DNA of 54,749 nucleotides, taken from contig CAYXNY010000049.1 of assembly GCA_964467175.1 (NCBI GenBank), positions 1-54,749 on the forward strand, read 5' to 3'. The notes below the pieces were generated by a model, which was given only the letters and a program-made list of their open reading frames with translations, was not told where the DNA came from and did not search any database. Positions 42,589 to 46,833 of the stretch are shown one piece after another. The first letter of the stretch is position 1; each line of letters opens with the position of its first letter. This DNA is from Candidatus Micrarchaeota archaeon. GTDB taxonomy: Archaea > Micrarchaeota > Micrarchaeia > Anstonellales > J096. The position numbers and the translations under genes were made by a program.

Positions 42589-44721
42589 TCATTTTCCGTT
42601 CTTTTTGTTTTCTTGAACCCATCTAGCCATGTTGTTTATCTCAACGCCAAGCCCGCCGTTGTTCTTTCCATTCCATGCGGCTATATAAGCAAGTATTTCT
42701 TCTGCCTCCTGCCTGTTGAATACAGGGTCTTTTACTAATCTCATCGCAATGAGCACCGGAGCTGACATCTTCTCCTCGCAAACTGCTTCTACTATAGTCC
42801 ATATTAATATCTTCCTTTCCACTCCCTTTTTTCCTTCTAGGATCTTGTTTATATCGGATTCAAATGTAGTTATGCTTCCGGCCATTTCTTTGATTGATTT
42901 TTTGACATCGTTCTTCATGGTGTCGTTATCTATTGCATCCAGCTGGGCGAATGTAGTTATCCCAAGTTTTTGGATGTAAGAAGGATACTTATTTATTTTT
43001 TCAGTTGTTTGGGAGCTCGCCTGTTGTGTTTGGGAACCTTTTATCTCCGCATCAAGAGCCTGCAGCGCTCTTCTCGCTTGGTTGTTCGTCCTAGATTCTA
43101 ATTCAATCGCGCTTCGTATTTTATTTTTTTGAGCTTCTGTATATTTATCGCTTTTGAGAATTGCGTTTAATTTATTCGTTGCATCCGTATTACTTCCATA
43201 ATTTTTAACAAGAAACATGAGCGGCCCTTCAAGCGCTACTTCTGTCTTGCTGTTTGGATTTTTAACCCATTCCGCCCAAGCTTTATCAAAGTCTTTCAGC
43301 GCATTTCCAACCATCTTGCTTGCAAAACTTCCGGCCTTTAACAGGTCTATTTTGCTGAGCTCCTCGTATACTTTTCTCGCGAGCTCGTAGTTTCCGTCGA
43401 CTTCATTCGCAACCCTTGCAACAACATTTTCCATTTCATCGGCCCTAGCGAGCGCAATCGCATTGTAATAGAATGAAGCATAAACAGTCGTTTTATTCTC
43501 AATTTTGCTTTTTACGAACGCATCAAAAACATCAAGGATAGGGAAATGCGAATACAGAGACGCCGAAAGAGCAGCAGGATCGCCGGCAAAAAACTTATAT
43601 CCCTCTATGAATTTTATGCACCTCTCAAGCGCAACTTTCTGTCCTGTCTTCGCCATGTATTTTACTGCTATCTCAGGCGCGCAATATGTAAACTCAGCGC
43701 ACTTCTGCACAAGCTCTAAATATCTTTCAAGCCCAACCCTTCCGCCCGCATACTCTTTGAAATAATTCTGCAAAACATTTTCTGGGTTTGAACCGGAGTT
43801 TTTTGCCAAACCAACTACAGTGTCCGCGCTCGGATAAAAGCCCGCGCCATAGAGCAAAAAGCATTTTGATGCATACTGGTCTGCCGCGCCGTTTGAGTTC
43901 CCAAACTGGGAAATTATAAACCATCTCGCAAGGTCTTTTGTCATTCCTCCGCTAACCTTTTGATAAACAGCCTCCCCAACCCTTTCCATGTTCGCTGGCT
44001 TTTCGTTTTGGTTTGATACCTTGACCAACCCATCGAGCAACCCAACCATGTAAGGAAGGTTTTTCCAAAGGTTTTCATTCGCAACAAGCTCGCTCATGAC
44101 CATTACTCTATTTCCGCAGAGAGAAAGCGCATCCACAACTTCTCCTGGCTCCCCCACTGCCTGCTGGCCAAGAGAAACAAGCTCCACTGCTTTACTCAAA
44201 CCATAAGAGGTTCTTGTTCCAGCCATTCGCCCCACTGCTTTTAGAGGGTCTATTTTCTTATACAAAGCAAAATTAAATACCGTATTTACCCAACCCTCCT
44301 CGCCAGTTTTTCTTTTAACAAAAGAAAGCGCAGTATCAACAGGGCAGCCGATCCCGCCCCAAACGGCAACTGCGGTATCTATAGGAACTATTCCCAAACC
44401 TATCATCGCCGCAAGATATCCTCCTGCCTCCCATTCCATCTTTTCATGGTAGTTTTTATAGCTCACGAGCGCCATAAAATATCTCGCTTCTTCCCTATTC
44501 TGAGTTTGCATAATCCATTCTCCATAGTCTACGAGTGCCTTCTTTTTTTCGGTAGTTTTTTTTGCGCCCATAAACGCTGTTCTCAACTTGAGCCCGGTGC
44601 TGTCGACCTGGGCGACTTGCTCGCTTGGCTGAGGCTCTTGAGCATGCAAAAACTTAGGTATCCCTATACACGCAGACCCAAGAATAATTCCTCCGGCGAT
44701 TAGCATGTTCCTTATTTTCAT
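42589..44721 (-). CDS. Large secreted alpha-helical hypothetical protein
   Basis: Signal peptide ending LHA-QE; 710 aa; no recognised family. Confidence 0.75.
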   Translation of the reverse strand: MKIRNMLIAGGIILGSACIGIPKFLHAQEPQPSEQVAQVDSTGLKLRTAFMGAKKTTEKKKALVDYGEWIMQTQNREEARYFMALVSYKNYHEKMEWEAGGYLAAMIGLGIVPIDTAVAVWGGIGCPVDTALSFVKRKTGEEGWVNTVFNFALYKKIDPLKAVGRMAGTRTSYGLSKAVELVSLGQQAVGEPGEVVDALSLCGNRVMVMSELVANENLWKNLPYMVGLLDGLVKVSNQNEKPANMERVGEAVYQKVSGGMTKDLARWFIISQFGNSNGAADQYASKCFLLYGAGFYPSADTVVGLAKNSGSNPENVLQNYFKEYAGGRVGLERYLELVQKCAEFTYCAPEIAVKYMAKTGQKVALERCIKFIEGYKFFAGDPAALSASLYSHFPILDVFDAFVKSKIENKTTVYASFYYNAIALARADEMENVVARVANEVDGNYELARKVYEELSKIDLLKAGSFASKMVGNALKDFDKAWAEWVKNPNSKTEVALEGPLMFLVKNYGSNTDATNKLNAILKSDKYTEAQKNKIRSAIELESRTNNQARRALQALDAEIKGSQTQQASSQTTEKINKYPSYIQKLGITTFAQLDAIDNDTMKNDVKKSIKEMAGSITTFESDINKILEGKKGVERKILIWTIVEAVCEEKMSAPVLIAMRLVKDPVFNRQEAEEILAYIAAWNGKNNGGLGVEINNMARWVQENKKNGK

Positions 44722-44748: not shown

Positions 44749-45846
44749 TTAAACATATCTGCTCTGGGAGAGTATTTCTCTTATGCTCGCATCTGTTTTG
44801 AAGCCCGTAGGAGAAAAATGCGTCCTGCTTGCCTCAAAACCTTTCTTTTTCAGAGTTTTAATAATATCGTCAGTCCTGCTGGGTGCTATTCCATAAACTT
44901 TTGCGATTCCATGCGTATCGAAAAAGTAGGGAATATCAAGCTCTTCATACAATAAATTTAGAAATTTTTCTGGCATTTCTTTGCCTTTATACTCTCTTTT
45001 TTTGTTTAAAGCAAGCATTTTTTTTATTGTTTTTTTGTCGTTTATTTCCCCCAGCCAAAGTTCTCCTCCATAATCGCTCATCTTTCCGCATAAACTGCAT
45101 GTTTTTTCCATGGTTTTTCCGCAGGTTGTATTCAAGCACGCCGAGCAGAAGCTTACATAACCCATCTGCCCTAGGTTTTCATCTGCTTTTTTTGCCCCCT
45201 TTTCCAATTTTATTATTGTTTTCATTTGATGGCGGTAATAGAAGGAGAGCAAGGGCCTTATACCGAAATTAAACTCATGCGATATTCTTGCAACAAAGTT
45301 TATGAGAATGCGCAGGCCTGTCTCGTGGCAGAAGTAATTTCGCATAGGTTTTGAGTGGTAATTCTTTAAGCACGCCTTTTTATTCGCACCGCACAAAACA
45401 GCCGTATCCGTCGCGGTTATTGAAAGATAGCCGGACTTTAGGTTTCTCAGCGCGCGCACGGCAAAATAAACATACGGTGTTGGGGTTCCAAAAGGGTCTA
45501 ACTCTATAAAATTATATTCGTTCGTCGCATTGAAAAGAAACCTGTTTATGTCTTCCCTGAAAACCCCTGCCTTTATTCCATTTTTATTTAGTCCTTTTTT
45601 GATGCATTCTACTGCCGCCTCATAAACATCAACAAACGAAACCTTTTCCACATTCTTATTTTCCATTTTATACCTCATGCCACGGATGCCAGAAGCAGCC
45701 ATGCCATCAAGAACGAATAGTTTTTCATTCAGAACCCCCACCAATAAAGAAGAAAGTGTCCTGCTCAGCTCCATGTGCGGATTGTAGAAAACGTCTTCTG
45801 CAAGGAAAAATTTTGTTCCTTGTTCATTTAAAATTTTAAATTCCAT
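44749..45846 (-). CDS. trm1: tRNA (guanine26-N2)-dimethyltransferase
   Basis: VFYNP.M...R, DGMAASGIRG.RY, LDPFGTP, TATDTAVLCG, RTHFSPTGFKTDA. Confidence 0.95.
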   Translation of the reverse strand: MEFKILNEQGTKFFLAEDVFYNPHMELSRTLSSLLVGVLNEKLFVLDGMAASGIRGMRYKMENKNVEKVSFVDVYEAAVECIKKGLNKNGIKAGVFREDINRFLFNATNEYNFIELDPFGTPTPYVYFAVRALRNLKSGYLSITATDTAVLCGANKKACLKNYHSKPMRNYFCHETGLRILINFVARISHEFNFGIRPLLSFYYRHQMKTIIKLEKGAKKADENLGQMGYVSFCSACLNTTCGKTMEKTCSLCGKMSDYGGELWLGEINDKKTIKKMLALNKKREYKGKEMPEKFLNLLYEELDIPYFFDTHGIAKVYGIAPSRTDDIIKTLKKKGFEASRTHFSPTGFKTDASIREILSQSRYV

Positions 45847-45921
45847 ATGGATAAAGGAAATGACGATTTTTAAAAGATTTGGGCATTGCTTTTTAAATAT
45901 TGTGTATAATAATATACCAAT

Positions 45922-46833
45922 ATGTATAAAAGATTTGGAGGAGGACGAGGACACAATCCCGGAGGCCGCAACTATTTTCCGCGAAAAGACCCTCTCCCTG
46001 ATAGGAACGACCCAAAGGAAATAATCATGAATGAACCGAAAGGAGCTTTCAAAAAAGGCGAGTATGAAACTGCTCTTGCATCAGTTGATAAAATTTTAAA
46101 AAAAAATCCAAATGACATTTTTGCCATTTCTTTCAAAATAAAAATATTGGGATCAATGGGTAGGGTTGAAGAAGCTAGGAAGATATTTGATGAGGCTGTT
46201 AGAGAGGGGATAGTGGATGTTGTGACTTATAATTCTATGATAGATGCTTATGGGAAGAAGGGTTTAGTTGAAGAAGCAAGAGAGATATTCAATAAGGCCG
46301 TTGAAAAAAGGATAGTGGATGTTGTGACTTATACTTCTATGATGGACATCTACTACAAAAGCAAGTTTTATGATGAGATAGAGAAATTACTGCAAGCAGC
46401 GCCAGAAAACATAAGAAATTCTCCTCTTATATTTTTGATGAAGCAAGATGCTATGAGGAAGCAGGGAAAAAGAGATGATGTGATTAAAAATATTGAGCAG
46501 TTCCTTAAAGAAAATTACCGCACCCAAAATTATGGAGATGATGTGTACGTGTTGGCGAAGGTTATTCTAGCTTACTCGCTGAAAGATAGCAGAAGAGGGG
46601 ATGAAGCGGTTGAAATTTTTGAAGAACTAAAAAGAAATACGCCTATAAGTAACAAAAGCTATATCAGGATACTTTGCGGGTATGTTTTTGCTAAGAACGG
46701 AGATATCGAAGAGGAAGAAAAGAATAGAATAGTTAAGTTATTGACTATTGCGCTTATAGAAGGAAACGGGAATGAGGCAGATATACAAAATGCTCTTGAT
46801 ATTCTCAACAAAAGGGTCAATAACTCTTCATAA
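45922..46833 (+). CDS. TPR/pentatricopeptide-repeat-like protein
   Basis: DVVTYNSMIDAYGKKGLVEEAREIF and DVVTYTSMMDIYYK match the PPR consensus; preceded by a TPR-like unit and a Gly/Arg-rich N-tail. Confidence 0.85.
   Translation: MYKRFGGGRGHNPGGRNYFPRKDPLPDRNDPKEIIMNEPKGAFKKGEYETALASVDKILKKNPNDIFAISFKIKILGSMGRVEEARKIFDEAVREGIVDVVTYNSMIDAYGKKGLVEEAREIFNKAVEKRIVDVVTYTSMMDIYYKSKFYDEIEKLLQAAPENIRNSPLIFLMKQDAMRKQGKRDDVIKNIEQFLKENYRTQNYGDDVYVLAKVILAYSLKDSRRGDEAVEIFEELKRNTPISNKSYIRILCGYVFAKNGDIEEEEKNRIVKLLTIALIEGNGNEADIQNALDILNKRVNNSS
46114..46419 (+). repeat. Three tandem 102-bp (34-aa) PPR-like units
   Basis: Unit starts at 46114, 46216 and 46318; 46208-46241 and 46310-46343 match at 33/34 nt. 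Confidence 0.85.

Follow-up and report, generated by a model that had tools for sequence, protein, structure and literature searches.

A probable homogenised repeat junction in a pentatricopeptide-type gene family of Micrarchaeota

Introduction

When two copies of a repeated block differ by a single nucleotide, and that nucleotide falls in a codon thought to set the RNA specificity of the encoded protein, does the difference reflect the reprogramming of an RNA reader or merely a stray substitution? The question is raised by a gene on a contig of a Candidatus Micrarchaeota archaeon (CAYXNY010000049.1 of assembly GCA_964467175.1, positions 1 to 54,749 of the forward strand; this whole stretch of 54,749 nucleotides is referred to here as the window). 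The gene occupies 45922..46833 on the + strand, stop codon included, and its open reading frame (ORF), which matches the Pfam models PPR, PPR_1, PPR_2 and PPR_3 above their cut-offs, is predicted to encode a 303-residue helical-repeat protein of the pentatricopeptide repeat (PPR) type. An earlier inspection made without database searches, the sequence-only reading, pointed to near-identical blocks in neighbouring repeat units that differ only at a specificity codon, and attributed them to recent duplication or gene conversion. The interpretation that we favour, with a probability of roughly 60%, is that the block is a homogenised junction between units of a Micrarchaeota PPR-type family, whose arrays recombine and carry differing code residues and whose products are putative binders of single-stranded RNA.

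The setting is an unusual one. A passage in PMC4029402 states that PPR proteins are typically absent from prokaryotes, and the relevant part of PMC8190603 describes the bacterial cases as symbionts or pathogens of eukaryotes and explains them by gene transfer. With subscription journals outside the coverage, we found no paper joining pentatricopeptide repeats with DPANN or Micrarchaeota, and, judged within the same coverage from listings, nothing that we found on prokaryotic, bacterial or archaeal PPR proteins concerns the proteins described here. A hot-spring, symbiont-type DPANN archaeon carries PPR-type units that are very near the plant consensus, one residue shorter. If these proteins do read RNA by the code, then the known range of the PPR code would extend to archaea and bacteria, the question of PPR origin would gain new material, and programmable RNA binding would have compact natural scaffolds to draw on, some of them from a hot-spring community.

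The repeated block and the units that it joins

Sequence comparison of the two copies of the block, at 46208..46241 and 46310..46343 on the + strand, shows that they are identical at 33 of 34 nucleotides. The lone mismatch, A at 46232 and C at 46334, changes AAT (Asn, 46231-46233) to ACT (Thr, 46333-46335) at codon 5 of the VVTYN and VVTYT motifs, exactly as had been described. Around the block there is a longer direct repeat of 87 nt with 80% identity and a spacing of 102 nt, or 34 codons; its first copy (46158..46244, + strand) covers helix b of unit 1 and the first nine codons of unit 2, and its second (46260..46346, + strand) covers helix b of unit 2 and the first nine codons of unit 3.

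All three units lie on the + strand. Unit 1 (amino acids 66-99; 46117..46218) is a degenerate PPR-type unit with S at position 5 and D as its last residue, and unit 2 (amino acids 100-133; 46219..46320) is a canonical 'middle' unit, VVTYN...IVD, with N at position 5, D at the end and a unit-profile score of 79.5. Unit 3 (amino acids 134-167; 46321..46422) is a 'terminal' unit, VVTYT...YY, with T at position 5 and either S or N as its last residue. The series S, N and T at position 5, and the D that closes the first two units, are as first reported. In PPR proteins position 5 and the last residue together form a code in which N/D reads U, T/D and S/D read G, and T/N reads A, and the sequences of the designer proteins dPPR-U8G2 and dPPR-U8A2 agree with it.

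The block is not a whole unit: it takes in three residues at the end of one unit and eight at the start of its neighbour. When units 2 and 3 are compared over their full length, just 12 of the 34 residues agree, the codons being identical at 7 positions, synonymous at 5 and non-synonymous at 22. The description of copies differing only at the specificity codon is therefore accurate for the 34-nt block and does not extend to the units as wholes. Within the block, all eight of the degenerate codons that specify the same residue in both copies agree; the probability of this is 1.9e-4 given the codon usage of the 24 long ORFs of the window, so the DNA likeness of the block exceeds what protein conservation gives. 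The substitution at a code codon is not in itself significant, because two of the approximately 11 codons of the block are code positions and the window offers one change in one pair of units.

PPR identity of the repeats

The assignment of the repeats to the PPR class, which the sequence-only reading had made by eye, is borne out by several comparisons. The Pfam model PPR (PF01535) scores 81 bits against a cut-off of 25 over three stretches, PPR_2 (PF13041) scores 66.7 against 30, PF12854 scores 49.1 against 23.8, and PF13812 scores 30.7 against 25. The best match among solved structures is the designer protein dPPR-U8G2 (5i9h; E 1.7e-89, nine stretches), relative to whose 35-residue repeats each query unit is one residue shorter, with the gap in the loop preceding the next unit. 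An AlphaFold2 model, built on a 16-sequence alignment, has a mean confidence score (pLDDT) of 88.3 and a predicted template-modelling score (pTM) of 0.81, and arranges 16 helices in hairpins as a tandem alpha-solenoid. The window units, with S/D, N/D and T/(S or N) at position 5 and the last position, stay within the alphabet of the PPR code (N, T or S followed by D or N). Two customary PPR attributes are absent: the spacing of 102 nt gives a unit of 34 residues and not 35, and the neighbouring genes and nearest named relatives are archaeal, where the usual setting is eukaryotic and organelle-targeted. We conclude that the gene product is a genuine PPR-type protein belonging to an undescribed archaeal family with 34-residue units.

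Variability at the code positions

A tabulation of code residues across homologues had been proposed as a check on the specificity-codon claim, and we have carried it out. A 34-position profile made from the units of the homologue L001 and window unit 2 was used to cut 1536 units from 155 stored proteins, and the variability of a position was defined as how often it differs between units at least 70% identical within one protein. An initial, loose version covered 24 proteins, including some with periods of 31, 33 or 35 residues, and placed positions 2, 5 and 34 at ranks 1, 2 and 5; it was replaced because periods other than 34 put position 34 out of register. In the strict version, limited to units with an exact spacing of 34 residues (16 proteins, with consensus units in 5 clusters at 60% identity), positions 5, 2 and 34 are the three most variable of the 34, with mean differences of 0.49, 0.48 and 0.45, and a random triple of positions reaches the observed value in a fraction of 0.00016 of 100000 draws. 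Averaging by cluster gives ranks of 1, 2 and 4; with the archaeal array removed the order at the top is 2, 5 and 34, and at a threshold of 80% identity (nine proteins) it is once more 5, 2 and 34. Of 123 units, 109 have N, S or T at position 5 and 101 have N or D at position 34, and among 46 units of the archaeal family position 5 is N in 21, S in 8 and T in 8, with D in 19 and N in 11 at position 34.

The arrays in this test are in part bacterial (P0010, P0011, P0013, P0045, P0055 and others, of 546-1798 amino acids), the named members deriving from metagenome-assembled genomes (MAGs) of Burkholderiaceae and Polyangia. IMG calls such a bacterial 34-residue array 'pentatricopeptide repeat protein', and NCBI calls it 'tetratricopeptide repeat protein'. 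Among the 45 most self-similar proteins the period is 34 in 27 and 35 in 10, a count that bears on two possible origins of the units, transfer from plants and descent within a prokaryotic lineage with a period of 34.

Individual archaeal arrays can be inspected in the same manner. The two middle units of L007 differ at positions 1, 26, 27, 29, 30, 31 and 34, and the seven middle units of L001 at positions 5, 6, 14, 16, 30, 31 and 34, with synonymous changes at 3, 4, 5 and 18. The arrangement characteristic of effector arrays of the TALE kind, in which at least three near-identical units differ mostly at specificity positions, is present in relatives and absent from the window, which has one middle unit. 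Variation at the code position is not demonstrable from the single change in the window; it is supported in the relatives, both in the 16 arrays and in the D34N difference between units of L002.

Variation of this kind bears on what the repeats might bind. The period of 34 residues is that of tetratricopeptide repeats (TPRs), which bind peptides and have no base-reading code, and one could suppose that the protein is a TPR-kind protein-binding scaffold, that its variable concave-face residues tune a peptide or protein partner (of a host or a virus, for example), and that any resemblance to the PPR code is a matter of inheritance or coincidence. Residues of the concave face would be expected to vary whatever the ligand, and the best Foldseek matches of the model are designed PPRs and consensus TPRs with similar E-values of 1e-6 to 1e-5 (1.8e-6 for consensus TPR structures), so the fold alone cannot separate the two classes. 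A stretch of the N-terminal hairpin (residues 42-65) also passes the cut-offs of TPR_1 (29.2 bits against 27.8) and TPR_2 (28.3 against 27). However, this cap is the only part of the protein to do so, and the repeated units score as PPR, with PPR models reaching 81 bits against 29 for TPR models; unit by unit they resemble designer PPRs very closely, positions 5 and 34 across the arrays almost always hold residues of the PPR code, and the basic, disordered tail of the protein would suit nucleic-acid binding. We regard a TPR-kind scaffold as distinctly improbable.

Unit types, unit number and concerted evolution

The homologues differ in how many VVTY-type units they contain. P0002, which is 70% identical to the window protein by BLASTP and 81% in alignment A1, has one, and lacks exactly the 34 residues of window unit 2 plus one tail residue; P0005 also has one, the window protein has two, P0003 and L002 have at least three each, and L001, from the same genus as the window genome, has eight, of which seven are near-identical middle units and one is terminal. 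For P0003, P0004 and L002 the contig ends fall inside the arrays. The one-unit proteins look like hybrids with the start of a middle unit and the end of a terminal unit, as would be expected of either a recombination deletion between units or an assembly collapse.

Every lineage compared has both the middle type (…IDAYGK.G…) and the terminal type (…YY…). Since the same two types are present in L001 and L002, window units 2 and 3 are not recent duplicates of each other, and a simple recent tandem duplication can be ruled out, the types being common to these distant orthologues.

The DNA of the units is much more alike within a genome than between genomes. The middle units of L001 have 25-34 of 34 codons identical among themselves, with 0-3 synonymous differences, and the two middle units of L002 differ at one of 102 nt, the change that gives D34N, whereas corresponding middle units from different genomes (window, L001, L002 and L007) have only 8-13 of 34 codons identical and 10-15 synonymous differences. 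Low synonymous difference within genomes and high difference between them indicate that unit DNA has been homogenised or re-amplified within each lineage. The 33/34 block of the window appears to be a homogenised tract of this sort, extending into the opening codons of the terminal unit. L001 offers a parallel: its terminal unit begins with the same five codons as its T-type middle units. Of the two origins initially offered for the block, plain recent duplication fails on the age of the unit types, and homogenisation in the manner of gene conversion fits the synonymous differences.

These comparisons also address an alternative, namely that the N/T difference of the window has no functional meaning and is down to chance or neutral substitution within a tract converted recently. 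There is a single change in 34 nt, a match to one of the two code positions by chance is not unlikely given the number of codons in the block, and the terminal unit carries N in P0002, P0005 and P0015 and S in others. But the pairing of N in the middle unit with T in the terminal unit is found again in L001, P0003 and P0004, the terminal unit of L002 likewise has T (its middle units have S), the arrangement is kept despite saturated synonymous divergence between the genomes, and the code positions are the most variable ones across the 16 arrays. A meaningless substitution seems to us a rather unlikely explanation.

Array collapse and strain variation in public contigs

The sequence-only reading had cautioned that the array may be collapsed in the assembly, and public contigs support that caution. 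Two hot-spring metagenome runs contain the stretch, X1 with 0.91 and X2 with 0.12 of the sampled words, and were examined as Logan contigs. No RNA run is listed as containing it, which is neutral as to expression. In X1 the flanking contigs are continuous, at depths of 98.5 and 152.8, and no contig spans 46165-46393; this region is covered by pieces of 64-108 nt, with summed word depths of 478, 4332 and 539 in three bins, sums which are not copy numbers and may include related strains. One X1 contig joins 46164 to 46267, skipping exactly 102 nt and hence one unit, two have the end of a middle unit ahead of 46165, and four carry a D34N variant of unit 1 (46216 G>A). The majority letter in X1 at both 46214 and 46316 differs from that of the window (V33 to A). 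In X2 a contig jumps back by 179 nt with 25 other letters between, a total of 204 nt that corresponds to two further units.

Nowhere do the two window copies match exactly over 31 nt or more, and a single genome with the window sequence would therefore not break a k=31 graph. As the graph is broken here, the sample holds more unit variants than the window shows, whether longer arrays or several strains. A paralogue in the same genome was considered as the source of the excess depth and ruled out, as the gene is present in one copy in the window genome (944 kb in 50 contigs, 88.8% complete). The number of units seen in the window cannot be relied on, and the locus clearly exemplifies the genes whose resolution should not be left to short-read metagenome assembly.

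The two-unit arrangement itself may be an assembly product: the population may in truth carry a longer or polymorphic array, of which the window shows a single path, either collapsed or arbitrary. The contig break at 46165-46393, the excess depth relative to the flanks where no second gene copy accounts for it, the joins with one unit fewer and two units more, and the arrays of P0003, P0004 and L002 that likewise end within repeats all favour this view. Against these stand the lack of a shared exact stretch of at least 31 nt, which makes the window copies assemblable without collapse, the possible contribution of related strains to a summed depth that is not a copy number, and the presence of the 33/34 block itself in public contigs at 99% or more. 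We put the odds of an assembly product at even.

Strain differences in X1 are not confined to the repeats. Within 45931-46036, some 105 nt of the N-terminal tail, the left-flank contig shows 15 substitutions and three indels relative to the window, and over the compared part of the neighbouring Trm1 gene (45000-45846) one X1 difference only is listed. The tail differences beside a near-invariant Trm1 mark the gene, in both its tail and its repeat array, as a hot spot of strain variation.

Protein architecture, family and genomic context

The start at 45922 is supported by the basic N-terminal tail, which is kept in P0002, P0005 and L001. A TATA-like box read from the sequence, TTTAAATA, lies at 45892..45899 on the + strand, about 26 nt upstream of the ATG, a distance that under the archaeal promoter spacing rule suggests a leaderless mRNA. 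The tail (amino acids 1-30; 45922..46011, + strand) is rich in Gly, Arg and Pro and predicted to be disordered, with pLDDT below 50 for residues 1-27; it is kept in relatives and strongly strain-variable in public contigs. It is followed by the TPR-like capping hairpin (46012..46116, + strand), which matches TPR_1 and TPR_2 and whose AlphaFold2 helices span residues 31-44 and 48-61, and then by the three units.

The remainder is a conserved C-terminal helical module (amino acids 168-303; 46423..46830, + strand), in which alignment A2 and the AlphaFold2 helices delineate three further degenerate hairpins and a capping helix. Residues R179, R249, C252, G253, F256 and A291 are invariant in all 16 sequences of alignment A2, and the R-x-x-C-G-x-x-F motif that follows the terminal 'YY' unit places the window protein in the Micrarchaeota PPR-type family. 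The module has no Pfam family of its own, giving only weak TPR- or ARM-like matches below the cut-offs, and comparison with the ESM Atlas leads to clusters without names (0.93) and to HAT/TPR clusters (at most 0.86), with no usable family name.

A word-seeded search gave eight matches among 5251 candidates, these being the protein itself, four archaeal-type relatives (P0002-P0005) and three weaker plant PPRs (E of 3.5e-12 or higher), and an exhaustive search gave 11285 proteins at E <= 0.001, 108 of them at E <= 1e-30. The C-terminal motif R-[IVL]-[ILV]-C-G is present in 20 of the 155 stored proteins, with variants seen by eye in four more. Of 301 sampled genomes of the phylum, 55 match the profile at E <= 1e-5, and in 20, the window genome included (counted from the table), the match reaches the C-terminal module, with open frames of 72-895 amino acids. 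Relatives are 38-70% identical to the window protein by BLASTP and 41-81% in alignment A1, the L001 and L002 proteins being 47% and 44% identical. Two of the archaeal-type relatives bear the NCBI name 'pentatricopeptide repeat-containing protein [Candidatus Anstonellales archaeon]', and the nearest named relatives come from MAGs of Candidatus Anstonellales and Bilamarchaeaceae, class Micrarchaeia; by these relatives the archaeon belongs to the Micrarchaeota (DPANN), order Anstonellales.

The family, which is patchily spread over Micrarchaeota and already labelled PPR by database annotators, appears from these alignments and models to consist of a basic disordered tail, a TPR-like cap, a variable number of 34-residue PPR-type units and the conserved C-terminal module. 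One member, P0019, has five near-identical 33-residue units (…VVSH[S/N]AMLDAYAKAG…) in which position 5 alternates between N and S; unit length itself thus varies within the family.

The gene is flanked by those for Trm1 (PF02005) and TruD (PF01142), both of which are tRNA-modification enzymes. In 26 stored homologue loci, which include flanks of 6 kb at L001 and L002 and of 1.5 kb at most others, tblastn matched Trm1 and TruD nowhere but in the window-derived L006 and L011, and a functional link inferred from conserved synteny was rejected on the ground that neither gene lies beside a homologue at any other stored locus. The neighbourhood of the eight-unit homologue (L001, 5608-7182) is entirely unlike that of the window; read by eye, it adjoins a 718-residue ORF resembling the secretion or pilus ATPase FlaI and a 607-residue membrane protein ORF. 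Two genes upstream of the PPR gene in the window, with Trm1 between, there is a 710-residue ORF (42589-44721, - strand) with a hydrophobic N-terminus and no Pfam family (best match E 0.47), possibly a secreted or surface protein. Elsewhere in the window, the segment 28001-34000 has a G+C content of 0.33-0.38, against 0.41-0.49 in the rest, and may be an island or foreign segment.

Discussion

How might such a locus have come about, and what might it do? We propose that the block marks where two adjacent 34-residue PPR-type units meet and that this junction has been homogenised, in an array that would evolve by unequal recombination and gene conversion, with units gained and lost even among close strains. 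These processes would keep unit DNA nearly identical within a genome, and residues 2, 5 and the last would stay different or diversify. The N and T of the window would then represent an old difference between middle and terminal units, kept in an otherwise homogenised tract. The putative function is the binding of single-stranded RNA, in which the middle units would read bases by the PPR code, and a fixed function or general affinity would come from the constant C-terminal module and the basic tail. When the code is applied by hand to the L001 units it gives roughly A-U-U-G-U-G-A-U, and eight to nine bases are too short to be searched for meaningfully in a 1-Mb genome.

Several observations weigh against this interpretation. 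In L001 the synonymous changes at codons 3, 4 and 5 are linked, and positions 6, 14 and 16 vary as well, a pattern for which a mosaic drawn from a handful of old unit types accounts no less well than selection on the code. D, N, S and T are usual helix N-cap residues, and changes at the last position may make no structural difference. Positions 2 and 5 lie on the concave side, where any ligand would bind, as in TPRs, whose period of 34 residues the units share and whose consensus structures Foldseek rates equally. The terminal unit, as noted, has T at position 5 in some lineages (L001, L002, P0003 and P0004) and N or S in others. The 16 arrays of the variability test are from short-read metagenome assemblies, which handle such repeats poorly, and their lineages are related. 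Finally, RNA binding by the window protein is a prediction from sequence, and the protein as assembled appears to have one canonical middle unit and two or three code-bearing units; at two or three bases, what it could specify falls short of a specific target.

A broader proposition can be entertained. TAL (transcription activator-like) effectors consist of near-identical tandem modules that differ mostly at repeat-variable diresidues, in arrays reshaped by recombination, and they read DNA. The archaeal and bacterial 34-residue PPR arrays could form a natural class that acts in a comparable way on RNA, in which modules are shuffled, multiplied and homogenised while selection diversifies residues 2, 5 and the last, such that lineages or strains retarget to new RNAs, perhaps in symbiont-host or virus-host conflict, and of which the window gene would be one short allele. 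We offer this tentatively, as an idea that is more probably wrong than right.

Comparison with known systems

The closest well-characterised counterparts are the P-class PPR proteins and their designer forms (dPPR and cPPR; PDB 5i9h, 5i9d, 5i9f, 5orq, 4pjr and 6een; maize PPR10, 4m59). The archaeal protein has the same unit consensus, with VVTYN/T opening helix a, a G-K-x-G turn and E-E-A in helix b, the same helix-hairpin solenoid, N, T or S at position 5 and D or N at the last, and it passes the Pfam PPR models. It differs in its 34-residue unit, its archaeal host without an organelle, the few units of the window copy, and the addition of a basic N-terminal tail and a family-specific C-terminal module. 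With TPRs (consensus CTPR; PDB 8chy and 9qhc) it shares the 34-residue period, the solenoid fold and an N-terminal cap that scores as TPR, and it departs from them in repeated units that score far better as PPR.

The likeness to TAL effectors lies in near-identical modules, differences mostly at specificity residues and recombining arrays. The folds and sequences are unrelated, TAL effectors read DNA and not RNA, and the pattern in the window rests on one pair of units.

The other Micrarchaeota PPR-type proteins (Anstonellales) have the same tail, 34-residue units and C-terminal module as the window protein, which has one middle unit where L001 has seven and which alone among the loci examined sits between Trm1 and TruD. 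The bacterial arrays are much longer (546-1798 amino acids), are without the C-terminal module and have bacterial hosts, but they resemble the archaeal family in their near-identical tandem 34-residue PPR-type units and in having the same three most variable positions.

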